Of a stretch of DNA of 64,000 bases, positions 13,909-33,836 are shown one piece after another. The notes beneath the pieces are model-generated. The model searched no databases. It worked only from the letters and a program-made list of their open reading frames with translations, and was not told the DNA's origin. This DNA comes from an uncultured Bacteroidales bacterium (lineage in GTDB: Bacteria; Bacteroidota; Bacteroidia; Bacteroidales; UBA3663): positions 16,306 to 80,305 of the forward strand of contig CAMPAQ010000017.1 of the NCBI GenBank assembly GCA_946631995.1, given 5' to 3'. Each line of letters opens with the position of its first letter. Within the stretch, counting starts at the first letter, position 1. A program made the position numbers and the translations under genes.

Positions 13909-13920
13909 AAGCTATGGGAG

Positions 13921-13958
13921 AATAGTTGGTGAAAATTACCCCTCCCCGAGGATTAGAG
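13921..13958 (-). terminator. terminator of uxaB between uxaB and uxaA
   Basis: CCCCTCCCC-GAGGATTAGAG-GGGGAGGGG perfect 9-bp stem; on the minus strand it is followed by GTAATTTTC. Confidence 0.55.
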
Positions 13959-13998
13959 GGGGAGGGGCAAAATGTTTTCTTGATTAAAATATATCAGA

Positions 13999-15480
13999 TT
14001 ACAGGATGCCCTTGACAGTTTCGAGCATACCCTTCTGCTGAATCTGGTTCAGGAAATCGGTCACCATGTCGGTGAGACCAGGAATCTCGTTGAGGTTCTG
14101 CTTGCTCTCCTTCCAGATGACGTCGGTAGCACCAAGAACGCCCTCTGCAACCTTGCGGGTATCGTTGGTAGCCCAAAGTTGGGTCAAGCGATCCATAATC
14201 TCCTGTGCGTCGTTTGGCTGGATAGGTGCGCCGTCGGCACGTGTGCCACCCTTATAGTAGGTGATGATTGCAGCCAGACCGAGAACCAAGCCCTTTGGCA
14301 ACTCGCCCTTGCGCTCCAGATAAATCTTCAGACCTGGCAGGTCGCGTGTCTCGAACTTCGGGAACGAGTTAAGCATGATGCTGGTAACCTGATGATCGAC
14401 GTATGGGTTGTCGAAACGCTCGAGCACATCGGCACCGAACTTCTTCAGTTCCTCCATTGGCAGGTCGAGAGTCTGCATCAACTCGTCGAACTGAACCTTC
14501 TTGATGTACTTGCCGACAATTGGATGATGGCAAGCGTCGCGAACGATATTGATGCCGCTCAAATAAGCGACAGGCGACAATACAGTGTGAGGACCGTTGA
14601 GCAAGGTTACCTTACGTGCATGGTATGGCTTCTCGCTCTCTGCAATCAGCACGTGCAGACCGGCCTTGTCAGCAGGGAATTCCTTGCGGAGGGCGGCGAT
14701 TGACATGTTCGATGGCTTCTCGATTACCCAGAGGTGGAAAATCTCGGCCTGAACCATCAGGTTGTCGGCATAACCGGCACGCTTCTGCAACTTGGCGATG
14801 TCCTTACGTGGGAAACCTGGAACGATGCGGTCAACGAGAGTAGCGCAAACATAGTTGTACTTGAGGAACCAGTTCTTGAACTTCTCGTAATCCTTACCGA
14901 AGTCATCCTTCCAAAGTTCGATATACTGCTCGATGCACTCCTTGAGGTGATGGCCATTCAAGAAAATCAACTCACAAGGCATAAGGATGAGACCCTTCTT
15001 CGGATCACCGTTGAAAGTCTTGAAACGGCGATACAGCAACTGTGTGAGTTTGCCTGGATATGATGAAGCAGGAGCATCGGTGAACTTGCAACTTGGGTCG
15101 AATGTGATACCAGCCTCAGTAGTATTAGAGATGACAAAGCGAATCTCCGGCTGCTCAGCGAGAGCCATGAAAGCGGCATTCTGTGAGTAAGGATTGAGAG
15201 CGCGGCTAATGACATCAATACGATCCAACTGATCGACCGGCTTACCGTCCTGACGACCCTGCAGATTGACATGGTAGAGACAGTCCTGGCCGTTGAGCCA
15301 TTCTACCATACCTTTTTCGATTGGCTGAACAACGACAACGCTGGCATTGAAGTCAGTTTTCTTGTTCATGTTCCAGACAATCCAATCGATAAACGCACGC
15401 AAGAAATTGCCCTCACCGAACTGAATAATCTTCTCGGGGGCTACGCTTTTAGGAGCAGTTTGTTTGTTAAGAGCTTTCAT
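13999..15480 (-). CDS. uxaB: tagaturonate reductase (altronate oxidoreductase)
   Basis: 493 aa mannitol-dehydrogenase-family fold (IIQFGEGNFLRAF N-terminal Rossmann, ESEKPYH). Confidence 0.8.
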   Translation of the reverse strand: MKALNKQTAPKSVAPEKIIQFGEGNFLRAFIDWIVWNMNKKTDFNASVVVVQPIEKGMVEWLNGQDCLYHVNLQGRQDGKPVDQLDRIDVISRALNPYSQNAAFMALAEQPEIRFVISNTTEAGITFDPSCKFTDAPASSYPGKLTQLLYRRFKTFNGDPKKGLILMPCELIFLNGHHLKECIEQYIELWKDDFGKDYEKFKNWFLKYNYVCATLVDRIVPGFPRKDIAKLQKRAGYADNLMVQAEIFHLWVIEKPSNMSIAALRKEFPADKAGLHVLIAESEKPYHARKVTLLNGPHTVLSPVAYLSGINIVRDACHHPIVGKYIKKVQFDELMQTLDLPMEELKKFGADVLERFDNPYVDHQVTSIMLNSFPKFETRDLPGLKIYLERKGELPKGLVLGLAAIITYYKGGTRADGAPIQPNDAQEIMDRLTQLWATNDTRKVAEGVLGATDVIWKESKQNLNEIPGLTDMVTDFLNQIQQKGMLETVKGIL

Positions 15481-15678
15481 GAAAAAATAAACATTTATAA
15501 AATTAGGTTATGATTATGAAATGAGAAATAGACAAAAAAATATCCCGATTCAAGGGAAATTTCCGACGGCAAAGATACGAATTATATTTTCCTACCAAAA
15601 AAAAAACAAATTATTTTGTAGGGGATTAGAAAAAAATCGTATCTTCGCCGCATGGAAATCGTAAAAATAATACTCACT

Positions 15679-15713
15679 TTTGGCAATTTAATGTCAGCAT
15701 GAGTTTAGCTTTG
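15679..15713 (+). promoter_or_regulatory. candidate uxaC-operon promoter (-7 TAGCTTTG at 15706-15713)
   Basis: TAnnTTTG match about 50 nt upstream of the uxaC ATG, within a 280-bp AT-rich divergent region shared with uxaB. Confidence 0.45.
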
Positions 15714-15762
15714 ATTTTATATCCGAAAAATACAATAAACATTAAACCCAAAGTTAATTAGA

Positions 15763-17181
15763 ATGAAAGAATTTATGGACGAGAACTTCCTGCTGCAGTC
15801 CGAGACTGCACAGAAGTTGTATCATGAGCATGCTAAAAAGATGCCGATCATTGACTATCACTGCCATTTGATTCCAAGAATGGTCGCAGAAAACAAGCGA
15901 TTTGAATCGATTGCGCAAATCTGGTTGATGGGCGATCACTACAAGTGGCGTGCTATGCGCTCTAACGGCGTTGACGAGAAGTTTTGTACGGGTTCTGACA
16001 CAACAGACTGGGAAAAATTCGAGAAATGGGCGGAGACCGTGCCATACACATTCCGCAATCCATTGTATCATTGGACTCACCTCGAATTGAAGACAGCCTT
16101 CGGCATTGACAAGCGTCTGAATCCTCAGACCGCACGCGAAATCTACGACAAGTGCAACGACCTCATTGCTAACGACCCGAAGTTCTGCCCTCGCGGACTT
16201 ATGGAGTATTATAATGTGGAAACCGTATGTACGACGGATGACCCAGCCGACTCTCTCGAATATCACAAGGCTGTAGCCGCCGACCCATCGGCCAAGACTC
16301 AGATGTTGCCTACATGGCGTCCTGACGCAGGCATGAACATCGAGGCCGCCACCTGGAAGGCATACATCGAAAAGCTCTCAACCGTAAGTGGCGTGGAAAT
16401 CAAGAAATTTGCAGACCTTGTAAATGCATTGCAGAAGCGTCACGACTTCTTTGCTTCATTGGGCTGCCGTCTCTCCGACCATGGCATCGAGGAGTTCTAC
16501 GACGAGCCATACACCGTAGCCGAGATTGACGCTATTATGGACAAGGCATTGGCCGGCAAGGCCCTCACTGTCGAGGAGCAGCGCAAGTACAAGCATGCCT
16601 ACATGCACGAGCAGGGCATCATGGACTATAACGCAGGTTGGACACAGCAGTACCACTATGGCGCTATCCGCAACAACAACAGCAAGATGTTTGCCAAGTT
16701 GGGTGCTGACACCGGTTTCGACTCAATCGGCGAATTCACAACGGCCAAGGCAATGAGCCACTTCCTCGACGAACTCAATTCAGAAGGCAAGTTGGCCAAG
16801 ACTATCCTCTACAACCTCAACCCATGCGCAAACGAGGTTATTGCTACCATGTTGGGCAACTTCCAGGATGGCAGCGTAGCTGGCAAGATCCAGTTCGGTT
16901 CGGGCTGGTGGTTCCTTGACCAGAAGGATGGCATGGAGAAGCAGATGAATGCACTCTCTCTGCTCGGTCTGCTCTCTCGTTTTGTTGGTATGCTCACTGA
17001 CAGCCGTTCATTCCTCTCCTACCCTCGTCACGAGTACTTCCGCCGTACCCTTTGCAATTTGGTCGGACAGGACATCGAAGACGGCTTGATTCCTTACACT
17101 GGCTATGAGGCAGAACGCGTCAACCAGATGATTGAGGATATCTGCTACAACAACGCAAAGAGTTTCTTCAAATTCAAGTAA
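15763..17181 (+). CDS. uxaC: glucuronate isomerase
   Basis: MKEFMDENFLL...PIIDYHCHL; UxaC family, 472 aa. Confidence 0.9.
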   Translation: MKEFMDENFLLQSETAQKLYHEHAKKMPIIDYHCHLIPRMVAENKRFESIAQIWLMGDHYKWRAMRSNGVDEKFCTGSDTTDWEKFEKWAETVPYTFRNPLYHWTHLELKTAFGIDKRLNPQTAREIYDKCNDLIANDPKFCPRGLMEYYNVETVCTTDDPADSLEYHKAVAADPSAKTQMLPTWRPDAGMNIEAATWKAYIEKLSTVSGVEIKKFADLVNALQKRHDFFASLGCRLSDHGIEEFYDEPYTVAEIDAIMDKALAGKALTVEEQRKYKHAYMHEQGIMDYNAGWTQQYHYGAIRNNNSKMFAKLGADTGFDSIGEFTTAKAMSHFLDELNSEGKLAKTILYNLNPCANEVIATMLGNFQDGSVAGKIQFGSGWWFLDQKDGMEKQMNALSLLGLLSRFVGMLTDSRSFLSYPRHEYFRRTLCNLVGQDIEDGLIPYTGYEAERVNQMIEDICYNNAKSFFKFK

Positions 17182-17279
17182 ATAAAAATAATGAATGTGT
17201 GCGAGAGGCATTATAAGTTGCCCCTCGCGCGCAATCCTTTGTATAAAAGCAAAAACTTACTTTATTAACATAAATAATC

Positions 17280-18305
17280 ATGGGAAAAATTATTACCCTT
17301 GGCGAAATTATGCTTCGCCTTTCTCCTAACGGCAACGACCGTTTTGTTCAGACCGACGTTCTCCGCATCATTCCTGGTGGCGGTGAAGCAAATGTTGCTG
17401 TCAGCTGTGCCAACTATGGCCATGAGGCTTATTTGGTAACAAAGCTGCCAAAGCATGAAATCGGTCAGATTGCCGTAAATGCATTGCGTCGTTATGGTGT
17501 TAAGACCGACTATATCGCCCGCGGCGGCGATCGTATCGGTTTGTATTATTGCGAAACCGGCGCTTCAATGCGTCCTTCAAAGGTTATTTACGATCGTGCA
17601 CACTCATCTATCGCCGAGGCTGATCCAAAGGATTTCGACTTCGATGCAATCATGGAAGGCGCAGATTGGTTCCACTGGTCTGGCATCACTCCTGCCATTT
17701 CAGATAAGGCTGCAGAGCTCACCAAACTTGCTTGCGAGGCCGCAAAGCGTCATGGTGTAACTGTATCTGTTGACTTGAACTTCCGCAAGAAGCTTTGGAC
17801 CTCAGAGAAGGCAATCTCTATCATGCGTCCATTGATGAAGTATGTTGACGTATGTATCGGCAACGAGGAGGATGCAGAACTCTGTCTGGGCTTCAAGCCT
17901 GATGCAAACGTCGAAGGTGGCGAGACCAACGCTGCCGGCTACGAGGGTATCTTCAAGGCTATGGCCAAGGAGTTCGGCTTCAAGTATGTCGTATCTACTC
18001 TCCGCGAGTCATTCAGCGCCACACACAACGGCTGGAAGGCCCTCATCTACAACGGCAAGGAGTTCTATCAGTCAAAGCGTTATGAGATCAACCCAATCAT
18101 CGACCGCGTCGGTGGTGGTGACTCTTTCTCTGGTGGCTTGATTCACGGTATGCTCAAGTATCCTAACGATCAGGCATCTGCACTTGAGTTCGCGGTTGCA
18201 GCTTCTGCCCTCAAGCACACCATCAACGGCGACTTCAACCTCGTGTCAGAAGATGAAGTTCTGAGCCTTGCAGGTGGCAATGCCAACGGTCGTGTTCAGC
18301 GTTGA
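17280..18305 (+). CDS. kdgK: 2-dehydro-3-deoxygluconokinase (PfkB family)
   Basis: 341 aa ribokinase-like fold; GGGEANVAV and DRVGGGDSF motifs. Confidence 0.85.
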   Translation: MGKIITLGEIMLRLSPNGNDRFVQTDVLRIIPGGGEANVAVSCANYGHEAYLVTKLPKHEIGQIAVNALRRYGVKTDYIARGGDRIGLYYCETGASMRPSKVIYDRAHSSIAEADPKDFDFDAIMEGADWFHWSGITPAISDKAAELTKLACEAAKRHGVTVSVDLNFRKKLWTSEKAISIMRPLMKYVDVCIGNEEDAELCLGFKPDANVEGGETNAAGYEGIFKAMAKEFGFKYVVSTLRESFSATHNGWKALIYNGKEFYQSKRYEINPIIDRVGGGDSFSGGLIHGMLKYPNDQASALEFAVAASALKHTINGDFNLVSEDEVLSLAGGNANGRVQR

Positions 18306-18335
18306 TCAAATAGAAACCATTAAAAAGTAATAATC

Positions 18336-19004
18336 GTGGCAAAATTCGATAAATTTGAGGTGATGGCCAAGATCAAGGCCGCTCCTATGGTACCTGTCTT
18401 CTACAACAAAGACGTTGAGGTATGCAAGAATGTAATTAAGGCTTGTTACGACGGTGGTGTACGCGCTTTCGAGTTCACTAACCGTGGCGACTTCGCTCAC
18501 GAAGTATTTGGCGAACTCTCAAAGTGGGTTGCCAAGGAGTGCCCAGAATTGGCTATCGGTATCGGTTCAGTAGTAGATGCTCCTACAGCTGCTCTCTACA
18601 TCCAGTTGGGTGCAAACTTCGTTGTTGGTCCATTGTTCAACCCAGACGTTGCCGTTGTCTGCAACCGTCGTTGCGTCACCTATTGCCCAGGCTGTCTCAC
18701 ACCATCGGAGATTGGCAAGGCTCAGGAGGTAGGCTGCGACTTCACCAAGGTATTCCCAGGTGATGTTGTCGGTCCGAACCTTGTCAAGGGCTTGATGGCT
18801 CCAATGCCTTGGTCGAAGATCATGGTTACCGGCGGTGTTGCTCCAGAGGCAGAGAACCTCGAAAAGTGGTTCAAGGCTGGCGTCTATTGCGTAGGCATGG
18901 GCTCTAAGCTCTTCCCGAAGGAGACCGTAGCAGCTGGCGACTGGAAGGCTATCTCTGCCAAGTGCAAGGAGTGCTTCGACGCTATCGCATCGTTCAAGAA
19001 ATAA
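18336..19004 (+). CDS. eda: KDPG / 4-hydroxy-2-oxoglutarate aldolase
   Basis: 222 aa, Eda family (VPVFY, EFTNRG, KVFPG). Confidence 0.85.
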
Positions 19005-19015
19005 ATCCCGATTGT

Positions 19016-19060
19016 CTTTCCATAGGTTCAATCCAGAGCCTATGGAAAGATGTATTTTAA
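19016..19060 (+). terminator. hairpin between eda and exuT (terminator or attenuator-like)
   Basis: CTTTCCATAGG...CCTATGGAAAG 11-bp stem followed by ATGTATTTTA. Confidence 0.4.
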
Positions 19061-19078
19061 ATCTCTAATCTATACATA

Positions 19079-20530
19079 ATGTCAACACAACAAAAACTTA
19101 TGTCGAATTGGCGTTGGTGGCTGTGCTCTCTGCTCTTTGTTGCCACTACGGTCAATTATCTGGATCGTCAGGTGCTTTCGCTCACCTACGAGGAGTTCAT
19201 CAAGCCTGAATTTCATTGGACCGATGATCACTACGGTACAATCACTTCGTTTTTCTCCATCTTCTATGCAATTGCCTGCCTTTTTGCCGGCAAGTTTGTC
19301 GATTGGATGGGTACCAAGAAGGGTTATCTGATTGCTATCTTCGTGTGGTCGGCCGGTGCATGTCTGCACGCCCTCTGCGGTTGGGCTACCACCTTCTTTG
19401 TCGATGGTGTAGATAGTGTTGCCGCCCTGCGTGCCGTTGAGGCTGGTTCGAATGCAGCATTGGCCATCGCCACAGTCTCGGTTTATCTTTTCCTCCTCTG
19501 CCGTGGTATCCTTGCTCTCGGTGAGGCCGGAAACTTCCCCGCAGCCATCAAGGTTACGGCCGAGTATTTCCCGAAGAAGGATCGCGCATTCGCCACTTCA
19601 TTGTTCAATGCAGGTGCGTCAGTAGGCGCATTGGCCGCACCCCTCTGTATCCCTGTCTTGGCCAAGTCATTTGGCTGGGAGATGGCCTTCATCATCATCG
19701 GTGCATTGGGCTTCATCTGGATGTTCTTCTGGCAGTTCATGTATGACAGGCCAGAGGAGAGCAAGCACGTGAACGAAGGCGAGTTGGAGTATATCCATCA
19801 GGATGACGCAGCAGAGCAGGCATCGGCCAAAACGGCTACCAGCGAAGAGACTTCGATTCCAATGCTGAAGTGCTTCACCTACCGTCAGACCTGGTCGTTC
19901 ATTACTGGCAAGTTCTTTACCGATGGTGTTTGGTGGTTCTTCCTCTTCTGGGCTCCATCTTACTTCCAGAACCAGTTCGGCTATAAGGCATCATCTGGCA
20001 TGGGTCAGGCCCTGATTTTTACACTCTATGCCATTGTGACCGTGTTGTCAATCTTCGGTGGTTATCTGCCAAAATTATTTGTCGTCAAGAAGGGCATGGA
20101 GCCATATTCTGGCCGTATGCTTTCGATGTTGATCTTTACTTTCTTCCCGTTGTTTGCCCTATTTGCACAGCCATTGGGTGCGAGCAGCGCATGGTGGCCT
20201 GCAATCTTCATAGGCTTGGCAGGCGCAGGTCATCAGGCTTGGTCGGCCAACTTGTTCTCGACCGTCGGTGATATGTTCCCGAAATCGACCATCGCCACAA
20301 TCACCGGCATCGGTGCTATGGCAGGCGGTATCGGCTCGATGATTATTCAGAAGGCAGCCGGAGCTCTCTTCACTCATGCCGAGGAGGCTGGTTCAGCATT
20401 CACCTTCCTGGGCTTTGAAGGCAAGCCGGCAGGCTACTTCATCATGTTCTGCTTCTGCGGTGTGGCCTATATCACTGCATGGGTAATCATGAAGGCACTT
20501 GTTCCAAAGTACAAGAAAGTTGAAGCATAA
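19079..20530 (+). CDS. exuT: MFS hexuronate transporter
   Basis: 483 aa, 12-TM MFS; N-terminal WRWWLCSLLFVATTVNYLDRQVLS typical of ExuT/GudP; last gene of the hexuronate cluster. Confidence 0.8.
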   Translation: MSTQQKLMSNWRWWLCSLLFVATTVNYLDRQVLSLTYEEFIKPEFHWTDDHYGTITSFFSIFYAIACLFAGKFVDWMGTKKGYLIAIFVWSAGACLHALCGWATTFFVDGVDSVAALRAVEAGSNAALAIATVSVYLFLLCRGILALGEAGNFPAAIKVTAEYFPKKDRAFATSLFNAGASVGALAAPLCIPVLAKSFGWEMAFIIIGALGFIWMFFWQFMYDRPEESKHVNEGELEYIHQDDAAEQASAKTATSEETSIPMLKCFTYRQTWSFITGKFFTDGVWWFFLFWAPSYFQNQFGYKASSGMGQALIFTLYAIVTVLSIFGGYLPKLFVVKKGMEPYSGRMLSMLIFTFFPLFALFAQPLGASSAWWPAIFIGLAGAGHQAWSANLFSTVGDMFPKSTIATITGIGAMAGGIGSMIIQKAAGALFTHAEEAGSAFTFLGFEGKPAGYFIMFCFCGVAYITAWVIMKALVPKYKKVEA

Positions 20531-20692
20531 GCATTGACATCGAAATGAAAAAATGTCCGGATGGCTCACAATGAGCTGTCCGGATTTTTTATGGCATTGT
20601 CGGAGGCAGCTATGGCGGCTGAAAAAAACATCATCGCAATATAATCCATCTATTTATGCAATTTTTCCATTTCAATTGTAGAGGAAAATCGC

Positions 20693-20700
20693 TATCTTTG
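20693..20700 (+). promoter_or_regulatory. candidate -7 box TATCTTTG upstream of the GH2-GH35 gene
   Basis: Consensus match 60 nt upstream of the ATG at 20760. Confidence 0.4.
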
Positions 20701-20759
20701 CCAACTGAATTGGCATCGGCCATGAAAAATGGATTCATAAATGATTTTATACCTTACAT

Positions 20760-23700
20760 ATGAACGCATTATTCATTGCGCTGCTTTCCATCAATCTGAG
20801 TGGAACGTGGCAGTTTTCAATTGACCGCTCGGCCGAGGGTGTGCGTCCGCTGCACTACGACCAGACCATCGAGCTGCCGGGTTCGATGTTGACCAATGGC
20901 CTGGGCGATGACGTGACGGTCGATACCCGCTGGGTGGGCAGTCTGTACGACTCGTCGTACTTCTTTAACCCGAAGATGAAGCCTTACCGCGAGCCGGGCC
21001 GGATGAAGTTCCCCTTCTTCCTTACGCCCGAAAAGCATTACGTGGGCAACGCGTGGTACAGCCGCACCGTGCGCGTGCCGAAGAACTGGAAGGGACAGCG
21101 TGTGACGCTCTATCTGGAACGTCCGCACATCGAGACGACGCTCTATGTCAATGGTGACAGCATCGGCCACCAGATGTCGCTCAGCGTGCCGCACCAGTAT
21201 GACATCACGGACCACGTGAAATTCGGAAAGGAGAACACCATCGAACTGAAAATCTACAACGGCATCGAGAACGTCTGCGTCGGCCAAGATTCCCACAGTG
21301 TGACCGATCAGACGCAGGGCGACTGGAACGGCATCGTCGGCCAGATTGAGCTGCGCAACGAGCCTGTCATCTGGCGCAAGCGCGTCGAGCCGGACGTGGA
21401 CAATGCATTGGCCAAAATCTTCCTGAACGATACCGTCGTCGAGGTCAAGCTGGAGCAGCCGCTGCGCCTGTGGGACGAGTTCCACCCCGAACTCTACACC
21501 GTGACGGTCGATTATCGTGGCCAACAGGTTCCGGTCACTTTCGGTATGCGGAAGGTGGGCGTGCGCGGTCGCGACATCATGCTCAACGACAAGGTCCTGA
21601 AGGTGCGCGGCACGGTGGGCAACTGCTGTTTCCCCGAGACCGGCTATCCTCCGACAGACGTCGCCGCGTGGAAAGCCGTCTTCGCCAAGTGCAAGGAATA
21701 TGGCCTGAACACGATGCGATTCCACTCGTATTGTCCGCCCGAGGCTGCTTTCATTGCGGCCGATAGCCTTGGCTTCTATCTCCAGCCCGAAGGTCCGTCG
21801 TGGCCGAATCACGGCGTGCGTCTGGGCCAAGGACAAGCCATCGACAAATATCTGATGGAGGAGTGCAAGGCCATCATCGACCAATATGGCAGCCATCCGT
21901 CGTTCGTCATGCTTGCTGCGGGCAATGAGCCGGCCGGCCGATGGGTCGCCTGGTGCAACAAGTTCGTGCCCGAGATGCACCGCTATGACCCGACCCGCAT
22001 CTATGCCGATGCCTCGGTGGGCGGAGGTTGGGCATGGGCCGACAGCGCAGAATTCCACGTCAAGGGCGGTGCGCGCGGTCTCGATCCGTGGGACAAGGCA
22101 TTGCCGCAGTCGATGGACGATTTCGCCGATGGCATGGCCCTGCCGCGCAACTTCAAGCCGACGGCCGCCAAGCCCGTCAACACCGCGCCCATCGTGAGCC
22201 ATGAGACTGGCCAATGGTGCGCCTTCCCCGACCTGACAGAAATCGACCAATACACCGGCGCATACAAGGCACGCAACTTCGAGATTTTCAGCGATTTGTT
22301 GGCCGATGCCGGGATGTCGTCCATGAGCCGCAAGTTCCTGATGGCGAGCGGTAAGTTACAGACATTGGCCTACAAATACGACATCGAACGCAACCTGCGC
22401 ACGCCCGACTACGCGGGTTTCCTCCTGCTGGGCCTGAACGACTACAGCGGCCAGGGCACGGCGCTCGTCGGCCCGCTCAATGTGCATTGGCGCGAAAAGG
22501 GCTACTGCACGGCCGATGACTGGACCGAATTCTGCTCCGACGTCGTGCCATTGGCCAGATTCCCGAAATTCGTCTTTTCGGCCGATGACACCATCCGCAT
22601 CGGCACCATGCTCTACAATGCGGCCGATGAACGCAAGTCGGTCAACGACGAGCTGATGTACAGCTTTATGGCCGATGGACTTGAATTCCTGAACGGTATG
22701 GTCAAGACGGGCGACGACGTCATCTTCGTGCCCCGCGACAAGGACAAGGCGCAGAAGATCACCTTCATGCTGCGCACCGGCACGCACTCGAACCATTGGG
22801 ACTTCTGGGTCTATCCGGAGGTGTACGACGAGGCATCGGCCAACGACATCTACGTCTGCGACAGCCTCGACGAAAAGGCATTGGCCACACTCCAGAGCGG
22901 CGGCAAGGTCCTGCTCACGGCCGGCGGTAAGATACGTTATGGCAACGATGTGAAGCACCACTATCTGCCCGTCTTCTGGAACACCTCGTGGTTCAAGATG
23001 CGTCCGCCGCACACGACCGGCTCGTACATCGAGAACGACCATCCGATTTTCCGCGATTTTCCGACCGACGACTGGCAGAACCTCAACTGGTGGGAGCTTG
23101 TCAACCGCACGCAGGTGATGAACCTCGCGCACTTCCCGAAGGATTTCCAACCCATCGTGCAGCCCATCGACACGTGGCACATCTCGCGCAAGTTGGGTAT
23201 GCTGTTTGAGGCCAATGTCGCCGGCGGCCATCTCGTCATGACGACCATGGATTTGGCCAATGACCTTGACTCGCGCATCGTTGCCCGACAGCTGCGCCAC
23301 TCGATTCTGAACTACATGTCGAGCGACAGTTTCCGTCCGTCGGCCACCATCGACCCCGCCGTCATCACCGAGCTCTTCACGACCGAAGCTCCAGCCGTCA
23401 ACATGTTCACGCGCGACACGCCCGATGAGCTCAAGCCGCGCCTCGGTGCCGCCACGGTCTATGAACTCACGTTGCCCGCAGCGCCATCGGCCGACACCGC
23501 AAAATTCCATTTCGGCACCAACGTAGCGCCGTCGGGAAACACCTTGCAGGTCGATTCGCGCGGTTTCTTGGCCGATGGGAAGCCCGTCGTGCCTGTGATG
23601 GGCGAGATTCACTATGCCCGCGTGCCGCGTAGCGAGTGGAAGCGAGAACTCCAGAAGATGCGCGACGGCGGCGTGACCATCGTCTCGACCTACGTCTTCT

Positions 23701-25577
23701 GGCTGCATCATGAGCCAGTCGAGGGCCAATGGCGTTGGGACGACAACCGCGACCTGCGTGCCTTCATCGAGACCTGCCGTGAGGTCGGCCTGCCCGTCGT
23801 ACTGCGCGTCGGTCCGTTCTGCCACGGCGAAGCCCTGCAAGGTGGTTTCCCGACGTGGCTCGTCGAAAAGGCATCGGCCGACAGCAAGCAATACAAGCTG
23901 CGCAGCCTCGCGCCCGGCTTCATGGACGCTACGCGAAAATTATATGCCGAGATTTTCCGTCAGGTCGATGGCCTTCTGTTCAAGCAGGGCGGCCCCATCG
24001 TCGGAATGCAGATCGAGAACGAATGTCGCGGCCCATGGCCCTACTACAAGGCGCTGAAGCAGTTGGCCGTTGAAATCGGCTTCGACCTGCCGTTCTACAC
24101 CCGCACAGGCTGGCCCAAGCTGAACGGCCGCGAGGAGTTCGGCCAACTGCTGCCTCTCTATGGTGACTATGCCGACGGATTCTGGGAGCGTTCGATGAAG
24201 GATATGCCGGGCAGCTATCCCGACGCCTTCGTCTTCAAGCCAGGCCGCGTGTCGGAAAACATCGCCACCGAGACCTTCGCGAAATCCGAACTCGGCGCGG
24301 AAGGTGCATCGGCCACAAGCTACCCCTACCTCACCTGCGAGCTGGGCGGCGGCATGATGACGGCCTACCATCGTCGCGTGCGCATCTTCCCGAAGGATGC
24401 TTTGGCATTGGCCATCTGCAAGGTCGGTTCGGGCTCCAACCTGCCGGGCTACTACATGTACCACGGCGGCACCAATCCGGAGCCAGGCATGGCCGAAAAA
24501 CAGGCCAGCGCCGTGACGAACTACAACGACCTGCCGCAGATGAGCTACGACTTCCAGTGTCCCGTGGGCGAGGTCGGCCAAGTGAACGAATCGTACCATT
24601 GGACACGCCGTTTCCACCTCTTCCTGCACGATTTTGGGCCGATGCTACGCGACATGCCGGCCGTCTTCCCCGCCACCAACGACGAGAACGGACGCCGCGA
24701 CTCGACCCTGCGCTATGCCGTGCGCACCAACGGACGGAGCGGCTTCATCTTCGTCAACAACTACCGCCGTATGCAGCCGCTTTCGGCCAAGGAGGGCATC
24801 CAGTTCCGCTTCACATTGGCCGACAGCACCCAGCTCACCCTGCCCGCCATCGACATTGCGGCCGATGCCTGTTTCGTGCTCCCCTTCGGCTTGAAGTTGG
24901 CCAATGCCACCCTCGACTGGGCCACCGCTCAGCCCGTCTGCTGGTCGGCCGCGACGAAGACGCTCACCCTGGCCGAACTGCCCGGCATGGAGGCCGCCGT
25001 CAGCGTGGGCGGCATCACCAAGCTGCTCTCGGTTGACAAGCCATTGGCCATCGGCGGCATCACCATCCGCCTGCTCAGCGAGGCCCAGTCGCTTGCGGCC
25101 TATCTGGATAACGGCCAATGCACCATCGATCCCGACCGTTATGCGTTGGCCGAGACCGGTAAAACCATCGGCATCAAGCAGATACAGAAGGCTAAAGGCC
25201 TGCGTGAAGTGAAAAAAGGTTCGCAGAAGGTTGCCGAACAGCCATCGGACGATGACTACGCTCAGGCCGCCGTATGGCAGTTCTCGAAGCTCAAGGCATT
25301 GGCCGACAACGACATCGTGCAAATCAACTACGCGGGCGACGTGGCTCGTCTCTACGTGGACGGCCGCCTGGTGCAGGACAACCAGTGGAACGGCAACCCG
25401 ATGCTGGTGCACGCCTCGCAACTACGCGGAAAAAAAGTGCTGCTCAAGGTGCTCCCACTGGGCAAGGACTATCCGATTTACCTCCAGCCCGAACAGCGGG
25501 AGACATTGGCCAATGCGACTGACGAAGGCTTGTGTGAACTGAACGAAGTCAAGATTTTAACTCCAACTCAAAAATAA
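20760..25577 (+). CDS. two-catalytic-domain glycoside hydrolase: N-terminal GH2 (beta-galactosidase/glucuronidase-like) fused to C-terminal GH35 beta-galactosidase
   Basis: 1605 aa. The N-terminal half has the GH2 sugar-binding fold (RVTLYLERPHIETTLYVNGDSIGH) and a TIM barrel with AAGNEPAG (NEP acid/base). From about residue 880: GEIHYARVPRSEWKRELQKMRDGGVTIVSTYVFWLHHEP and GGPIVGMQIENE (GH35 signatures). There is no stop between the halves. Confidence 0.8.
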   Translation: MNALFIALLSINLSGTWQFSIDRSAEGVRPLHYDQTIELPGSMLTNGLGDDVTVDTRWVGSLYDSSYFFNPKMKPYREPGRMKFPFFLTPEKHYVGNAWYSRTVRVPKNWKGQRVTLYLERPHIETTLYVNGDSIGHQMSLSVPHQYDITDHVKFGKENTIELKIYNGIENVCVGQDSHSVTDQTQGDWNGIVGQIELRNEPVIWRKRVEPDVDNALAKIFLNDTVVEVKLEQPLRLWDEFHPELYTVTVDYRGQQVPVTFGMRKVGVRGRDIMLNDKVLKVRGTVGNCCFPETGYPPTDVAAWKAVFAKCKEYGLNTMRFHSYCPPEAAFIAADSLGFYLQPEGPSWPNHGVRLGQGQAIDKYLMEECKAIIDQYGSHPSFVMLAAGNEPAGRWVAWCNKFVPEMHRYDPTRIYADASVGGGWAWADSAEFHVKGGARGLDPWDKALPQSMDDFADGMALPRNFKPTAAKPVNTAPIVSHETGQWCAFPDLTEIDQYTGAYKARNFEIFSDLLADAGMSSMSRKFLMASGKLQTLAYKYDIERNLRTPDYAGFLLLGLNDYSGQGTALVGPLNVHWREKGYCTADDWTEFCSDVVPLARFPKFVFSADDTIRIGTMLYNAADERKSVNDELMYSFMADGLEFLNGMVKTGDDVIFVPRDKDKAQKITFMLRTGTHSNHWDFWVYPEVYDEASANDIYVCDSLDEKALATLQSGGKVLLTAGGKIRYGNDVKHHYLPVFWNTSWFKMRPPHTTGSYIENDHPIFRDFPTDDWQNLNWWELVNRTQVMNLAHFPKDFQPIVQPIDTWHISRKLGMLFEANVAGGHLVMTTMDLANDLDSRIVARQLRHSILNYMSSDSFRPSATIDPAVITELFTTEAPAVNMFTRDTPDELKPRLGAATVYELTLPAAPSADTAKFHFGTNVAPSGNTLQVDSRGFLADGKPVVPVMGEIHYARVPRSEWKRELQKMRDGGVTIVSTYVFWLHHEPVEGQWRWDDNRDLRAFIETCREVGLPVVLRVGPFCHGEALQGGFPTWLVEKASADSKQYKLRSLAPGFMDATRKLYAEIFRQVDGLLFKQGGPIVGMQIENECRGPWPYYKALKQLAVEIGFDLPFYTRTGWPKLNGREEFGQLLPLYGDYADGFWERSMKDMPGSYPDAFVFKPGRVSENIATETFAKSELGAEGASATSYPYLTCELGGGMMTAYHRRVRIFPKDALALAICKVGSGSNLPGYYMYHGGTNPEPGMAEKQASAVTNYNDLPQMSYDFQCPVGEVGQVNESYHWTRRFHLFLHDFGPMLRDMPAVFPATNDENGRRDSTLRYAVRTNGRSGFIFVNNYRRMQPLSAKEGIQFRFTLADSTQLTLPAIDIAADACFVLPFGLKLANATLDWATAQPVCWSAATKTLTLAELPGMEAAVSVGGITKLLSVDKPLAIGGITIRLLSEAQSLAAYLDNGQCTIDPDRYALAETGKTIGIKQIQKAKGLREVKKGSQKVAEQPSDDDYAQAAVWQFSKLKALADNDIVQINYAGDVARLYVDGRLVQDNQWNGNPMLVHASQLRGKKVLLKVLPLGKDYPIYLQPEQRETLANATDEGLCELNEVKILTPTQK

Positions 25578-25660
25578 AAATTCAGGGATTGGCGGATTTG
25601 GCAGAAACATCGACCATGAAAAATCCGGTCCGCCATTTCCTGGAACAATGAAAAACATTC

Positions 25661-27538
25661 ATGAAAAAATTACTCCACCTCCTTTCCTTATCCATCGCTC
25701 TGATTTGCCCTACCATCGCATCGGCACAGACATCGGCCACAACGACTCCGAGCAAAGAGGAATTGCTCAAACGCCTTGTGATTCAGAACCAGAAAATGCC
25801 GCAGGAACGCGTCCACATCGTGACCGACCGCAACCATTACCTGACTGGCGACACCATCTGGATGCGCGCATTCCTGGTCGATGGACTCTACAAGAAACCT
25901 GTCCACTACAGCCGATTCCTCTACGTCGAACTGCGCAACGAGGCCGACAGCCTCATCAGCCGCGTCAAGCTGCACGAACGACCCGAAAAGAACGACACCG
26001 TGATGCGCGGCTACTTGTCAACGGCACCCGAACTGCCCACGGGCATCTACACGATTGCGGCCTACACCCAATGGATGCTGAACAGCGGCGAAGAACTATT
26101 TTTCAAACGCAACGTGCAGTTGGTCAATGCCGACGACATCAGCAAAGACATATTCACCGAGCCGCTGGCAAACACGACGGGCTGCGATGCCTATCACCGC
26201 GTGGACAGCGCATCGCTCGCTAAGGCCGACGACGCCGTCATCGTGGTTCATCCGCTGGTGCAGACCGAAAAGAACATCTATGGCAGCCGCGAAAAGGTCA
26301 CGGTCAAAGTCCAGGCACCGCCATACAGCAGTCTGGCCATATCGGTGACCGACAATGCAGCAACCCAAATCGACCAACGAGCCATGATTCACTACAGCAT
26401 CCTGGGCCAGCCATATTGGCACAACATCGACTCAATCTATGCCGGAAAATTCCGCGAACCGACCATCTTGAACGAGATTTCGCAAGAGATTCGCGGAACA
26501 CTGCGTGGCACTCTGCGCCGACAGCCCAAGGCCAACACGATGATAACGCTCTTCTCCCCTTCTGCCAAGCTCTTCCGCATGACGCGCACCGACTCGCTGG
26601 GCAACTTCTGTTTCGAGAATTTCGACGCACCGGACACTTGTATGTTCAACCTGCGCTCGTTCTCCGACCGTGGCCGCGGCAAGGGTGAAATCATCATTGC
26701 GCCAAGCCCGTTGCCAGATGTCGTGCATCATCTGGAAGCGCCCATAAAGCCCGCTACGCGAACCATAACAAGCAGCAGCGACAGTGTTTTGGCCGACAAG
26801 ATGAAGCAACGCGTGCGTTTCAGCAGCGGCCAATGGGAAATCACGCTCGATGAAGTCGGCGTAGCGGCTCAAAAGAAACTGCGCGGCGAAGACGGCATCA
26901 GCAAATTTGCCGACCGCAAACTCGGCTACAAGGACATCCAGGAAATGAACGTAGCATCGCTCGAAGACCTTCTGATGCAGCTGCCAGGCGTATTCATCAC
27001 GACCGATACGGCCGGCAACCGCATCGCCAAATACCGCAACAAACCGTTGTACTTCTGGCTGAACGACGTCGAAGTCAGCCAATCAATCCGCGACGACGAG
27101 TCCGAATTTGAATACGTCAACAACTACTGCAACGTCAACTGCATTGAATACCTCGATTTGGTCGAAGTGACATACATCGGCTCATCGAACGCCAGAGACT
27201 TCAACTCATACGGAATACGAATCAAGGAAAATCCGACGCTGGCGAAAAGCTCGAACGACTTCAATTCCATCACTTTCAAGCCGTTGGGTCATCAGGTTCC
27301 ACGCGAATTCGGCCAAACCGACTATTCGACACAGGAAAAGCGTTTCGCCAACCCACCCGGCACCGACCAGCGCGCGACACTCTATTGGAATCCGGCACTT
27401 GAGATTGACAGCACAGGCGTCGCATCGTTCACTTTCTGGACCAACGACAACTACAAGACGCTCTACACAATCCGCGTAGAGGGCGTGTCGGAAAGCGGCA
27501 AGCTCATCGACGGCATCAAGCGCATCAAGATGCAATAA
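25661..27538 (+). CDS. secreted hypothetical protein (carboxypeptidase-regulatory / TonB-plug-like regions)
   Basis: Signal peptide MKKLLHLLSLSIALICPTIASAQ; MQLPGVFITTDTAGNRIAKYRNKPLYFWLNDVEV resembles a plug-type beta-sandwich. No catalytic motif. Confidence 0.6.
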   Translation: MKKLLHLLSLSIALICPTIASAQTSATTTPSKEELLKRLVIQNQKMPQERVHIVTDRNHYLTGDTIWMRAFLVDGLYKKPVHYSRFLYVELRNEADSLISRVKLHERPEKNDTVMRGYLSTAPELPTGIYTIAAYTQWMLNSGEELFFKRNVQLVNADDISKDIFTEPLANTTGCDAYHRVDSASLAKADDAVIVVHPLVQTEKNIYGSREKVTVKVQAPPYSSLAISVTDNAATQIDQRAMIHYSILGQPYWHNIDSIYAGKFREPTILNEISQEIRGTLRGTLRRQPKANTMITLFSPSAKLFRMTRTDSLGNFCFENFDAPDTCMFNLRSFSDRGRGKGEIIIAPSPLPDVVHHLEAPIKPATRTITSSSDSVLADKMKQRVRFSSGQWEITLDEVGVAAQKKLRGEDGISKFADRKLGYKDIQEMNVASLEDLLMQLPGVFITTDTAGNRIAKYRNKPLYFWLNDVEVSQSIRDDESEFEYVNNYCNVNCIEYLDLVEVTYIGSSNARDFNSYGIRIKENPTLAKSSNDFNSITFKPLGHQVPREFGQTDYSTQEKRFANPPGTDQRATLYWNPALEIDSTGVASFTFWTNDNYKTLYTIRVEGVSESGKLIDGIKRIKMQ

Positions 27539-30836: not shown

Positions 30837-33836
30837 ATGAAAAAGATTTCTTTGATTTTGCTTGCAGTCCTCTCACTGACGGCGTGCAAGAGGGATTCGT
30901 CCGTAGTCTATCTGAACGGCGACGACGACGACATCATCATCCGTGTAGATGACGGCATGAAGGTCAACCTGACGGTCAACTGGAGCGATCTCGCCACCGC
31001 TCCGGACGGCATGACGGTCTATCTCTACCCGACGGGCAACGACACCGTGGACAGCACCGTCCGCTCGTGGCACTTCGACAACGTGCAGTCGGCTTCGGTC
31101 ACGGTACCCGAACAGGACTATTCCGTCATCTGTTTCAACCAGTCGGAGAACGAGCTTGCCGGCTACGTGTTCGATTTCCGCGACTACGCGACCGCAACGG
31201 TGACGGCCAAGGACCTGTCGAACCTTGCGCCATTGGCCATAGCCTCGATGAGCTCGCTGCAATCGACCCGAGCCCTGAACCTGATGGGCGTGCTCAAGCC
31301 GGTGAATGTGGTCAAGACGATGTCGCTCAAGATCCACGTAGCGGGCTTCAACGAGCGCGTCGAAGTGAAGGGTACGCTGTCCAACATGCCCGCCGGCGTG
31401 ACCATGTGCGACCGCAAGCCGCTGCCCAAGCCCGTTGACCTGACACTGCCGACGAAGGACTGGACGGTCAAGGCGACATCCGACGACGAGATCGACCTGG
31501 ACATCACGTTCAATTCCTTCGGCATATTCATGGACGATGAGACCCGCGCGGCAGGCAGCGGTGACGACGACTTTGTGGCCGAAACCAGAGTCGCGCTCGA
31601 CGACAGCGACCTGCGCAACATCCTGCACCTCGAAATCACAGCCGAGGACGGCACCGTCACGAAGCTCGACTACGATGTCACCCAGGAGCTCATCCGTCAA
31701 TATCGCATAGCGATCGAGAGCGAGGCGACAAGCTCCAACTCCACACCGCAGTTTGACAACCAGTTTTTCTTCTCGTACCATGCGGCCGACACCACAGCGA
31801 CCCTGGTCAGCGGCGTGGCCATGGGCAAGGTGGAGATTCCGGAGTACGTCCAGCATGACGGCCTGTCGTACAAGGTGACGGAAATCGGGGCACAGGCTTT
31901 TCGTGGCTGCACATATATGACATCCGTTTCCATCCCCGAAAGCGTGACCCGAATACGAAGTTATGCATTTGCGGAATGCGCCGGCCTATCGTCCCTCTCA
32001 TTGCCACAGTCGCTTAGGTTCATCGGAGTAAGAGCCTTTGACCAATGCCGAACTCTGACCGAAGTCACAATTCCGGAGCAGGTGGACAGTTTAGGAGGCT
32101 ATGCATTCGGTAATTGCCAGATGCTTACGAAAGTCAATTACAACGCGCGGCATTGCAATTATGATTATGATGAAAGTGCATTCACACATATTAGTGAGGG
32201 TGACACAGGTCTGGGCGTCACGACATTGAACATCGGAAATCAGGTTGAACATATCCCTGCTTGGGTATTCTCGGAGCTCAGTAACCTGAAGACCATGACA
32301 ATCCCGAATTCAGTGACAAGCATCGGCAGTAGTGCGTTCTCTCGTTGCACTGGCCTGACAAGCGTCACGATTCCGAGCAGCGTGACCAGCATCGGCAGCA
32401 GTGCGTTCTCTCGTTGCACTGGGCTGACAAGCATCACGATTCCGAGCAGCGTGACGAGCATCGGCGACGGTGCGTTCTATGATGTCGCGAATGTTGTTTA
32501 CAACGGCTCAGCAGAGGGCGCGCCGTGGGGAGCATTCATCATAAACGGTATCGTTGAAGATGGTATTGTCTTTGACGCTGAAAAAACGCAACTTATAAAG
32601 TATTGCGGAAATGGTGGTGATGTCACTATCCCTGCGACGGTTACAAGCATCGGCGAAAGTGCGTTCTCTCGTTGCACTGGCCTGACAAGCGTCACGATTC
32701 CGAGCAGCGTGACAAGCATCGGCGACGATGCGTTCGATGGCTGCACTGGCCTGACAAGCGTCACGATTCCAAGCAGCGTGACGAGCATCGGCGACTATGC
32801 GTTCTCGGGCTGCACTGGCCTGACGAGCGTCACGATTCCGAGCAGCGTGACGAGCATCGGCGACTATGCGTTCCAGTATTGCTCTGGCCTGACAAGCGTC
32901 ACGATTCCGAGCAGCGTGACGAGCATCGGCAGAAGTGCGTTCAATGACTGCACTGGACTGACAAGCGTCACGATTCCGAGCAGCGTGACAAGCATCGACA
33001 ACTATGCGTTCTATGGCTGCACTGGCCTGACGAGCGTCACGATTCCGAGCAGCGTGACGAGCATCGGCTACAATGCGTTCTATGATGTCGCGAATGTTGT
33101 TTACAACGGCTCAGCAGATGGCGCGCCGTGGGGAGCAAACAAAATCATATCTGGAGTCGTTGATGGTGATTTTATCCTTGCTGACGAAGAAAAGACCAAA
33201 CTTACAAAGTACATCGGCAAAGGTGGAAATGTCACTATCCCTGCGACGGTGACAAGCATCGGCGACAATGCGTTCCGAGGCTGCACTGGGCTGACAAGCG
33301 TCACGATTCCGAGCAGCGTGACAAGCATCGGCAGAAGTGCGTTCAATGACTGCACTGGACTGACAAGCGTCACGATTCCGAGCAGCGTGACAAGCATCGG
33401 CGACTTTGCGTTCGACGGCTGCACTGGCTTAACAAGCGTCACGATTCCGGACGGCGTGACCAGCATCGGCAACTTTGCGTTCTCAGGCTGCACTGGCCTG
33501 ACAAGCGTCACGATTCCGGACGGCGTGACAAGCATCGGCAAATGTGCGTTCTATGGCTGCACTGGCCTGACAAGCGTCACGATTCCGGACGGCGTGACAA
33601 GCATCGGCGACGGTGCATTCTATGGCTGCACTGGCCTGACAAGCGTCACGATTCCGAGCAGCGTGACAAGCATCGGCTACCGGGCGTTCTATGGCTGCAC
33701 TGGCCTGACAAGCGTCACGATTCCGAGCAGCGTGACCAGCATCGACGACGATGCATTCTATGGGATTGACATCATTTACTACAATGGAAGTGCATCCGGT
33801 GAACCGTGGGGAGCAAACAAAATAGTTAGGCAGTAA
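30837..33836 (+). CDS. BspA-type leucine-rich-repeat (LRR_5) cell-surface lipoprotein
   Basis: Lipoprotein signal MKKISLILLAVLSLTAC. About 300-aa N-terminal domain, then more than 25 units of CTGLTSVTIPSSVTSIG(D/S/R)xAF (23 aa = 69 bp). The C-terminal cap YYNGSASGEPWGANKIVRQ has two internal near-copies. Confidence 0.85.
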   Translation: MKKISLILLAVLSLTACKRDSSVVYLNGDDDDIIIRVDDGMKVNLTVNWSDLATAPDGMTVYLYPTGNDTVDSTVRSWHFDNVQSASVTVPEQDYSVICFNQSENELAGYVFDFRDYATATVTAKDLSNLAPLAIASMSSLQSTRALNLMGVLKPVNVVKTMSLKIHVAGFNERVEVKGTLSNMPAGVTMCDRKPLPKPVDLTLPTKDWTVKATSDDEIDLDITFNSFGIFMDDETRAAGSGDDDFVAETRVALDDSDLRNILHLEITAEDGTVTKLDYDVTQELIRQYRIAIESEATSSNSTPQFDNQFFFSYHAADTTATLVSGVAMGKVEIPEYVQHDGLSYKVTEIGAQAFRGCTYMTSVSIPESVTRIRSYAFAECAGLSSLSLPQSLRFIGVRAFDQCRTLTEVTIPEQVDSLGGYAFGNCQMLTKVNYNARHCNYDYDESAFTHISEGDTGLGVTTLNIGNQVEHIPAWVFSELSNLKTMTIPNSVTSIGSSAFSRCTGLTSVTIPSSVTSIGSSAFSRCTGLTSITIPSSVTSIGDGAFYDVANVVYNGSAEGAPWGAFIINGIVEDGIVFDAEKTQLIKYCGNGGDVTIPATVTSIGESAFSRCTGLTSVTIPSSVTSIGDDAFDGCTGLTSVTIPSSVTSIGDYAFSGCTGLTSVTIPSSVTSIGDYAFQYCSGLTSVTIPSSVTSIGRSAFNDCTGLTSVTIPSSVTSIDNYAFYGCTGLTSVTIPSSVTSIGYNAFYDVANVVYNGSADGAPWGANKIISGVVDGDFILADEEKTKLTKYIGKGGNVTIPATVTSIGDNAFRGCTGLTSVTIPSSVTSIGRSAFNDCTGLTSVTIPSSVTSIGDFAFDGCTGLTSVTIPDGVTSIGNFAFSGCTGLTSVTIPDGVTSIGKCAFYGCTGLTSVTIPDGVTSIGDGAFYGCTGLTSVTIPSSVTSIGYRAFYGCTGLTSVTIPSSVTSIDDDAFYGIDIIYYNGSASGEPWGANKIVRQ
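32300..33770 (+). repeat. near-identical 69-bp tandem repeats (LRR_5 units) with higher-order ~600-bp duplication, inside the BspA-like CDS
   Basis: CTGACAAGCGTCACGATTCCGAGCAGCGTGAC(A/G)AGCATCGGC recurs at least 15 times at 69-bp spacing. TTCTATGATGTCGCGAATGTTGTTTACAACGGCTCAGCAGA(G/T)GGCGCGCCGTGGGGAGCA occurs at ~32476 and ~33078. Confidence 0.9.

Follow-up and report, generated by a model that had tools for sequence, protein, structure and literature searches.

The locus and the fusion gene

The gene considered here lies in a 64,000-nucleotide stretch of DNA (the window) from an uncultured Bacteroidales bacterium (assembly GCA_946631995.1, contig CAMPAQ010000017.1). Positions 20760-25577 of the forward strand form one open reading frame (ORF) of 1605 amino acids (aa) with an ATG start, a TAA stop, and no internal stop codon. 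Its product joins a glycoside hydrolase family 2 (GH2) module to a family 35 (GH35) module through a linker of about 20 residues. Sequence comparisons indicate that this GH2-GH35 fusion is real, selectively maintained, and recurrent, and that it is probably a two-headed galactosidase. An earlier reading of the DNA, the original prediction, had proposed an uninterrupted ORF that encodes a natural fusion of two catalytic modules. Both proposals are borne out, with the predicted catalytic glutamates retained in each module. The fusion gene is built as follows.

20760-25577, + strand: GH2-linker-GH35 fusion protein, 1605 aa (single ORF, Pfam, fused homologs at 51-94% identity)
20760-20789, + strand: truncated signal-peptide-like N-terminus MNALFIALLS (residue 8 of 8u01 aligned to residue 11; clade comparison)
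20790-23444, + strand: GH2 module of the BT4151 type, residues 11-895, with sugar-binding jelly roll, probable Ig-like domain, TIM barrel, and C-terminal domains (8u01_A, NF049890, PF02837)
21927-21929, + strand: GH2 acid/base Glu390 in AAGNEPAG (8u01 alignment, invariance in fusions, codon confirmed)
22203-22205, + strand: GH2 nucleophile Glu482 in VSHETGQW (assigned by homology in the 8u01 alignment, invariant in fusions)
23445-23504, + strand: inter-module linker, residues ~896-915, GAATVYELTLPAAPSADTAK (module ends of relatives, fusion alignment, substitution rates)
23505-25574, + strand: GH35 module, residues ~916-1605, with TIM barrel and C-terminal beta-sandwich domains (PF01301, 3thc, AlphaFold2 (AF2)/Foldseek)
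24021-24023, + strand: GH35 acid/base Glu1088 in MQIENE (column alignment with E188 in VQVENE of human GLB1, invariant)
24339-24341, + strand: putative GH35 nucleophile Glu1194 in YLTCELGGG (invariance and spacing of GLB1 E268)

Pfam assigns Glyco_hydro_2_N (PF02837) to residues 13-184 (47 bits, cut-off 28) and Glyco_hydro_35 (PF01301) to residues 936-1286 (188 bits, cut-off 27, profile positions 2-316 of 319). The two halves thus belong to different families, and the GH35 domain that had been placed in the C-terminal half is covered over nearly the whole profile. All peptide motifs cited earlier are located in the translation: MNALFIALLSINLSG at residues 1-15, AAGNEPAG at 386-393, GEIHYARVPRSEW at 948-960, TYVFWLHHEP at 977-986, and GGPIVGMQIENE at 1077-1088. 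The module boundaries shift somewhat. A GH2 module with the NEP motif is present as proposed, but at residues 11-895 it is longer than the ~800 aa originally given. The join between GH2 and GH35 likewise exists, but it lies slightly 3′ of the predicted ~23350-23450, at nucleotides ~23445-23504.

The composition of the linker region is explained by the stand-alone relatives of both modules. Stand-alone GH2 proteins terminate at ...DTPDELKPKLK, the point at which the window protein continues with the linker and then FHFGT. Mature stand-alone GH35 proteins begin at TFxFGT, the position of FHFGT in the fusion, after a signal peptide of their own. The linker therefore occupies the place of the stand-alone GH35 signal peptide and appears to have replaced it.

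The GH2 module

The solved structure 8u01_A (916 aa) is collinear with residues 11-874 of the fusion protein (E 2e-196), and the alignment pairs AAGNEPAG with MYGNEPAG and SHETGQW with SHEIGQW. The acid/base Glu390 sits in the NEP motif and the nucleophile Glu482 follows about 90 residues on, both aligned with 8u01 and invariant, as expected of a GH2 barrel. The Pfam model of the GH2 TIM barrel (PF02836) is not reported for the protein in the Pfam search, and an E. coli LacZ-type profile match stops at Glu390. The N-terminal half of the barrel aligns with the solved GH2 enzymes 3gm8, 9bey, and 6s6z through the acid/base. A putative Ig-like domain (PF00703, residues 222-264) falls just short of the cut-off of 23 bits, at 22.7, and this stretch is spanned by the 8u01 alignment.

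The closest functional model is NCBIfam NF049890, “exo-beta-1,4-galactosidase BT4151,” which gives the GH2 half 1164 bits; a beta-glucuronidase model gives only 56 bits. Stand-alone GH2 relatives from Prevotellaceae score 1120-1144 bits on NF049890, and all that were tested fall below its cut-off of 1500. As they score like the fusion, the whole group is best placed as a sister lineage of BT4151. The fusion shares with BT4151/8u01 its collinearity over residues 11-895, the same domains including a long C-terminal extension, and the NEP and SHE(T/I)GQW motifs. A further likeness is the rhamnogalacturonan I (RG-I)-type genomic context found in a cultured relative of its GH2. It differs from BT4151 in the addition of a whole GH35 module at the C-terminus, in a signal peptide of 10 residues, in its location outside a SusC/D polysaccharide utilization locus (PUL), and in a score below the equivalog cut-off.

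The GH35 module

In sequence searches with the GH35 half, human GLB1 (3thc) aligns to its initial ~190 residues (E 1.6e-33). The acid/base E1088 aligns column by column with GLB1 E188. The putative nucleophile E1194 is invariant and stands 20 residues before a second GLB1-aligned block, a spacing that matches GLB1 E268; it has no direct residue alignment and falls in a part of the AF2 model of low confidence. This model of the GH35 segment reaches a predicted TM-score (pTM) of 0.81 and a predicted local distance difference test score (pLDDT) of 77. Two stretches, segment residues 233-301 and 334-375, have a pLDDT lower than 50 and take in the nucleophile, so the model is unusable for the catalytic geometry. 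In Foldseek, the top 26 PDB matches of the model are all GH35 beta-galactosidases, at no more than 18% identity.

The module resembles GH35 beta-galactosidases (GLB1 3thc, tomato TBG4 3w5f/6ik6, Bacteroides thetaiotaomicron BT0290 6eon) in the Pfam match across the barrel, the GEIHY/HGE/ENE motifs, the acid/base at the GLB1 E188 position, and a modeled GH35-type fold with C-terminal beta-sandwiches. It is set apart from them by an identity of 14-18% to any solved structure, a sequence alignment that stops after ~190 residues, the nucleophile motif TCELGGG, and an insertion of ~26 residues between the two catalytic glutamates. Stand-alone GH35 relatives of ~700 aa are abundant at ~50% identity. 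Among the homologs and structures searched, a solved or characterized member was not found. Judged by its profile match and relatives, the GH35 half is a complete but divergent module of an uncharacterized GH35 subfamily.

Authenticity and selective maintenance

Two public metagenome contigs encode precisely this protein; one of them is an 80-kb ENA scaffold. A scan of 80 Prevotellaceae/Bacteroidales species genomes (one genome per GTDB species) yielded in-frame GH2>GH35 ORFs in L007, L008, L009, L010, L011, and L078, with a partial one in L016; L006 and L087 also carry in-frame fusions. L011 is a cultured organism, Prevotella sp. P2-180. A copy with 96% aa identity in L012 (RUG12447) is interrupted by a contig end. 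The architecture is thus present beyond the window in at least seven other species-level genomes and about nine protein clusters, at 51-94% identity. Compared to the 93%-identical copy of L087, the ratio of nonsynonymous to synonymous substitution rates (dN/dS) is 0.115 in GH2, 0.164 in the GH35 barrel, 0.22 in the GH35 C-terminal domains, and 0.53 in the linker. These values indicate purifying selection on both modules and a relaxed linker. In fusions as distant as 53% identity, the four predicted catalytic glutamates are unchanged, and the GH35 glutamates and motifs are also invariant in 30 stand-alone GH35 relatives. Low dN/dS and invariant catalytic residues together argue that both modules are maintained as intact glycosidases of the retaining type, each with its glutamate pair.

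These observations bear on two alternatives. An assembly join or a sequencing frameshift might have artificially merged two adjacent genes, and such an origin is suggested by the source of the window, a short-read metagenome scaffold, and by the unfused adjacent GH35 and GH2 genes of relatives, one pair of which (L053) is split by a single in-frame stop. The GH2>GH35 frame is, however, unbroken in the genomes listed above (in part in L016), which stem from different studies and hosts. Moreover, adjacent unfused genes in the order GH2>GH35 were not seen in the 80 species genomes, the linker is alignable throughout the fusion clade, and the signal peptide of stand-alone GH35 proteins is missing from the fusion. 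Because the same frame recurs in independent assemblies, an artifact is rejected and, by these comparisons, effectively refuted. Alternatively, one module might be catalytically dead and now serve as a carbohydrate-binding or targeting domain. Inactive relics of catalytic domains are familiar in multi-modular carbohydrate-active enzymes (CAZymes), the nucleophile-bearing half of the GH35 barrel is poorly modeled, and PF02836 goes undetected. Against this stand the invariance of all four glutamates and their motifs, the low dN/dS in both barrels, and the alignment of the GH2 barrel with solved enzymes through the acid/base, which leave the loss of one activity very unlikely.

Recurrence and evolution of the pairing

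Fusions account for 27 of the 120 best homologs, with 9 clusters in the order GH2>GH35 and 18 in the order GH35>GH2. When proteins are clustered at 50%, both modules are found in two of the 150 top representatives, which makes the architecture globally rare, though recurrent in ruminant-gut Prevotellaceae/Bacteroidales. The fusion was originally described as uncommon; this holds on the global scale, but it is no one-off, as it recurs in both orders and as adjacent genes. The homologs listed for the GH35 half by itself were not used for prevalence, as that list omitted the fused proteins P0001-P0006, which are 63-92% identical over that half. In neighbor-joining trees of each domain, which carry no support values, the fusions fall into several groups with stand-alone proteins between them. 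This scatter and the two orders suggest no fewer than two independent fusion events, and probably three or more.

The 80 species genomes include 15 with a GH35 gene directly upstream of a GH2 gene; the two are separate genes in 14 of these and fused in one (L064). The stop and start codons of several GH35/GH2 pairs overlap as ATGA (L023, L030, and L077). Such coupled pairs (L023, L030, L077, and L086) and the GH35>GH2 fusions (P0007, P0024, and L064) share with the window protein the same two families, the lineage, and the implied partnership. They differ in the reversed order and in GH35 domains that belong to other sub-clades (41-49% identity), and each protein of a coupled pair, the GH2 included, retains its own signal peptide of 21-26 aa. 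The occurrence of both fused orders next to coupled adjacent genes suggests that the pair has been joined repeatedly, a functional link of the Rosetta-stone type. The fusion would accordingly have arisen because the GH2 and GH35 families are functionally coupled in this lineage. Their genes are translationally coupled neighbors in many relatives, and they would have been joined several times, in either order. With the linker in place of the GH35 signal peptide, a single export signal at the N-terminus would suffice for both modules. Relics of fission were looked for as well, and no GH35 remnant lies downstream of the close stand-alone GH2 genes of L002, L014, L015, L017, and L020.

Two further arrangements were observed. 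At 9308-14770 of L053, GH35 and GH2 lie in one frame with a single stop at 12008-12010, and the GH2 start follows 13 nucleotides later, which places this pair one point mutation from a read-through fusion. P0243 (616 aa) pairs the N-terminal half of a GH35 barrel with a GH2 fragment, the C-terminal ~290 residues; it may have arisen by deletion from a GH35>GH2 fusion, or it may be an assembly chimera.

A literature search brought up no description of a GH2-GH35 fusion, and database copies of the fusion are labeled just “beta-galactosidase.”

Proposed function in the degradation of RG-I side chains

Taken together, the protein is likely a genuine bifunctional glycosidase of ruminal Prevotellaceae/Bacteroidales, in which a BT4151-type GH2 exo-beta-galactosidase and a GH35 beta-galactosidase trim RG-I side chains. 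A role on pectic galactan or RG-I side chains had been suggested originally and is the best-supported function, given the BT4151 score, the triple fusions, and the context of a cultured relative. In the RG-I system of B. thetaiotaomicron, BT4151 and BT4156 (both GH2) and BT4160 (GH35) are reported to be three separate periplasmic exo-beta-1,4-galactosidases that work in synergy on RG-I galactan (PMC8002723). Among the homologs, P0008 (2196 aa) unites a PL11 rhamnogalacturonan lyase with GH2 and GH35. P0004 and the ORFs at 10001-15772 of L007 and 9977-15772 of L078 (1923-1931 aa) extend GH2 and GH35 by a C-terminal GH43 that matches endo-1,5-alpha-L-arabinanases (E 2e-116). In L012, L087, and L006, the fusion is directly preceded by a gene for an arabinofuranosidase-like GH43 (5a8c, 3qed) fused to an alpha/beta-hydrolase (esterase). 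In the cultured Xylanibacter ruminicola KHT3, a stand-alone GH2 ortholog is located between GDSL esterases and a GH28 gene, followed by genes of the rhamnose-catabolism type (FGGY kinase, isomerase, major facilitator superfamily (MFS) transporter, class II aldolase), with a GH35 gene 8 kb away. The triple fusions with PL11 or endo-arabinanase and the rhamnose/GH28 neighborhood in KHT3 thus point to RG-I side chains.

Most likely, the fused enzyme would trim the beta-1,4-galactan or arabinogalactan side chains of RG-I down to the backbone. One site might, for example, shorten galacto-oligosaccharides from the nonreducing end and the other remove the final galactose left as a stub on rhamnose. 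Fungal GH35 enzymes that strip galactose from the RG backbone (cited in PMC11739564) make this split between chain trimming and stub removal, which is our own proposal, plausible. A comparable arrangement is known from BT0996 of the rhamnogalacturonan II system, which combines a GH137 beta-L-arabinofuranosidase with a GH2 beta-glucuronidase (PMC13501991). In both cases one polypeptide carries two exo-glycosidase modules, which in the window fusion would likewise act on neighboring linkages of one pectic glycan. BT0996 differs in its families and substrate; in the window fusion, the same sugar is the predicted product of the two modules.

Several points weigh against the proposed RG-I function. 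The GH2 half does not reach the NF049890 cut-off and represents a sister group of BT4151 rather than a certified equivalent, with a function predicted by relationship. The GH35 half is likened to BT4160 of the RG-I PUL by family and not by established orthology, and its AF2 model is unreliable around the nucleophile. The specificity and the division of labor of the two active sites are predictions. Here and in most relatives the gene lies outside a SusC/D PUL; a SusC/SusD pair is absent within ±10 kb of the gene in the window scaffold, L002, L006, and L087, and the N-terminal hydrophobic segment of 10 residues may not support export. As an alternative, both modules might act on another glycan (e.g., beta-glucuronides that would feed the adjacent UxaC pathway, type-II arabinogalactan with beta-1,3/1,6-Gal, xyloglucan, or host glycans), or the GH35 module might be no galactosidase but, e.g., an exo-beta-glucosaminidase. 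Several stand-alone GH2 relatives are named “beta-glucuronidase” by NCBI, and a glucuronate isomerase gene lies upstream of the fusion. In NCBIfam, the GH35 half matches exo-beta-D-glucosaminidase alone, and weakly (85 bits, cut-off 1500), its subfamily is uncharacterized, GH35 includes other specificities (PMC11739564), and the KHT3 cluster also holds a GH115 gene. On the other hand, the glucuronidase model scores far below the BT4151 model, and among solved structures, beta-galactosidases (E 1e-33) come closer to the GH35 half than do glucosaminidases (E 4e-23). The adjacency to hexuronate genes is not conserved, and the fusion partners and neighbors are RG-I and arabinan enzymes. Another substrate is therefore considered unlikely, and trimming of RG-I side chains is retained as the preferred function.

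A more specific version of this function is tentative and, taken as a whole, somewhat unlikely. It would comprise an obligate two-enzyme partnership on RG-I between a chain-shortening exo-beta-1,4-galactosidase and a galactosidase for the Gal-beta-1,4-Rha “stub,” and the repeated joining in both orders would be its mark. The fusion of the window clade, with its shortened signal peptide, would be membrane-tethered or cytoplasmic rather than freely soluble in the periplasm and act on imported oligosaccharides, and its gene would pass from strain to strain as a self-contained unit.

In Bacteroidota of the gut and rumen, CAZymes with several catalytic modules are well known. The fusion accordingly represents neither a new mechanism nor a new kind of system; both modules come from known families and are mechanistically unsurprising. 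As a Rosetta stone, it offers a probable role in RG-I side-chain degradation and a named partner for a large uncharacterized GH35 subfamily with abundant members among rumen Prevotellaceae. It also suggests that the GH2/GH35 synergy of the separate B. thetaiotaomicron enzymes is strong enough for repeated fixation as one polypeptide. In addition, it could serve as a ready-made bifunctional enzyme for the debranching of galactan or RG-I in feed or pectin processing.

N-terminus and localization

The stretch before the mature INLSG (INLSGTWQF) motif of the fusion consists of 10 residues without charge, about 8 of them hydrophobic. Most relatives carry 21-26 residues at this position, ending in AQx before the mature start. 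The short form of 10-11 aa without the AQx cleavage region is found clade-wide (P0001-P0006, P0014, and the stand-alone GH2 proteins P0026-P0028). A longer N-terminus from an upstream start was considered; it is ruled out by an in-frame TGA at 20742 and by the short N-terminus being kept across the clade. The shortening of the signal peptide to 10 residues throughout this clade makes export uncertain, and the periplasmic location named in the original prediction, which itself called the signal peptide weak and the localization unclear, is not established. The periplasm, a membrane-tethered state, and the cytoplasm are all candidate locations.

Genomic neighborhood and possible mobility

The fusion gene is preceded by the hexuronate genes described originally (uxaA-like, uxaB, uxaC, kdgK, eda, and MFS), all of which are present. 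The flanking features are as follows; the six genes that follow are assigned by NCBIfam.

12403-13908, - strand: UxaA-like dehydratase
13999-15480, - strand: tagaturonate reductase (uxaB)
15763-17181, + strand: glucuronate isomerase (uxaC)
17280-18305, + strand: 2-keto-3-deoxygluconate (KDG) kinase (kdgK)
18336-19004, + strand: 2-keto-3-deoxy-6-phosphogluconate (KDPG) aldolase (eda)
19079-20530, + strand: MFS transporter
12403-20530, both strands: hexuronate catabolism cluster as a whole, a neighbor without conserved partnership (other genes precede the fusion in L012, L087, and L006)
20555-20595, + strand: intrinsic-terminator-like hairpin and T-run after the MFS gene (14-bp stem with 7 GC pairs, then TTTTTAT)
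20693-20700, + strand: TATCTTTG, a weak candidate for an own promoter, matching the Bacteroidota -7 motif TAnnTTTG, 60 nucleotides upstream of the ATG
25661-27538, + strand: 625-aa secreted protein with a weak MG2-domain match (Pfam MG2 30 bits, below cut-off; tblastn)

The consensus of the -7 promoter motif of Bacteroidota is TAnnTTTG, and this pattern occurs once in the 229-nucleotide intergenic region before the fusion gene. The original prediction had placed the fusion functionally ahead of the hexuronate pathway, a link that fails on conservation. The upstream gene in L012, L087, and L006 is the GH43-esterase, and the strong terminator-like hairpin, at 20555-20585 without its T-run, separates the MFS gene from the fusion. 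In tblastn searches with the window neighbors, the only hexuronate genes that turn up near GH2/GH35 genes are uxaB/uxaA after the GH35/GH2 pair of L086 and uxaC in L027. A conserved operon with the hexuronate genes is rejected by the unrelated flanks, the terminator, and these searches, and the adjacency appears to be strain-specific. As the predicted products are galactose and not hexuronates, any link would amount at most to “pectin in general.”

The nucleotide homology of the window to the copies of L012 and L087 (93-94%) is limited to 20754-25541, and both flanks are unrelated. It begins 6 nucleotides before the ATG and ends 36 nucleotides before the stop codon, limits from which a gene moving as a discrete unit would follow. 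The break around the gene points to a recent event of rearrangement, gene-sized recombination, or transfer. The fusion gene (GC 0.60, GC at third codon positions (GC3) 0.80) is the most GC-rich stretch locally; the mean GC3 of 34 other ORFs is 0.66 (z about 2), and the flanking hexuronate genes have a GC3 of 0.54-0.65. Two distant genes of the window reach 0.79-0.81 and are equally GC3-rich, so composition is not decisive for horizontal transfer of the fusion gene.

A 17-nucleotide direct repeat, CATCG[G/A]CCATGAAAAAT, is found at 20714-20730 and 25608-25624 (16 of 17 positions identical). Its copies bracket the ORF, 29 nucleotides before the ATG and 30 nucleotides after the stop codon. The repeat could be due to chance, as it holds the start-like motif ATGAAAAA that is common in local intergenic regions.

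The 625-aa protein is kept directly downstream of the fusion in L008 (6853-8721) and L009 (5466-7112) at 68-69% identity by tblastn. In these 69%-identical relatives of the fusion, the downstream reading frame overlaps the stop codon of the fusion gene, and the protein may be a functional partner. Further downstream, at 30837-33836, the window encodes a 999-aa leucine-rich-repeat surface protein (DUF5119 and LRR_5) with a weak match to HupY/LrrG adhesins. In L019, L023, and L030, relatives of this surface protein (38-46% identity) lie close to the GH2 genes.

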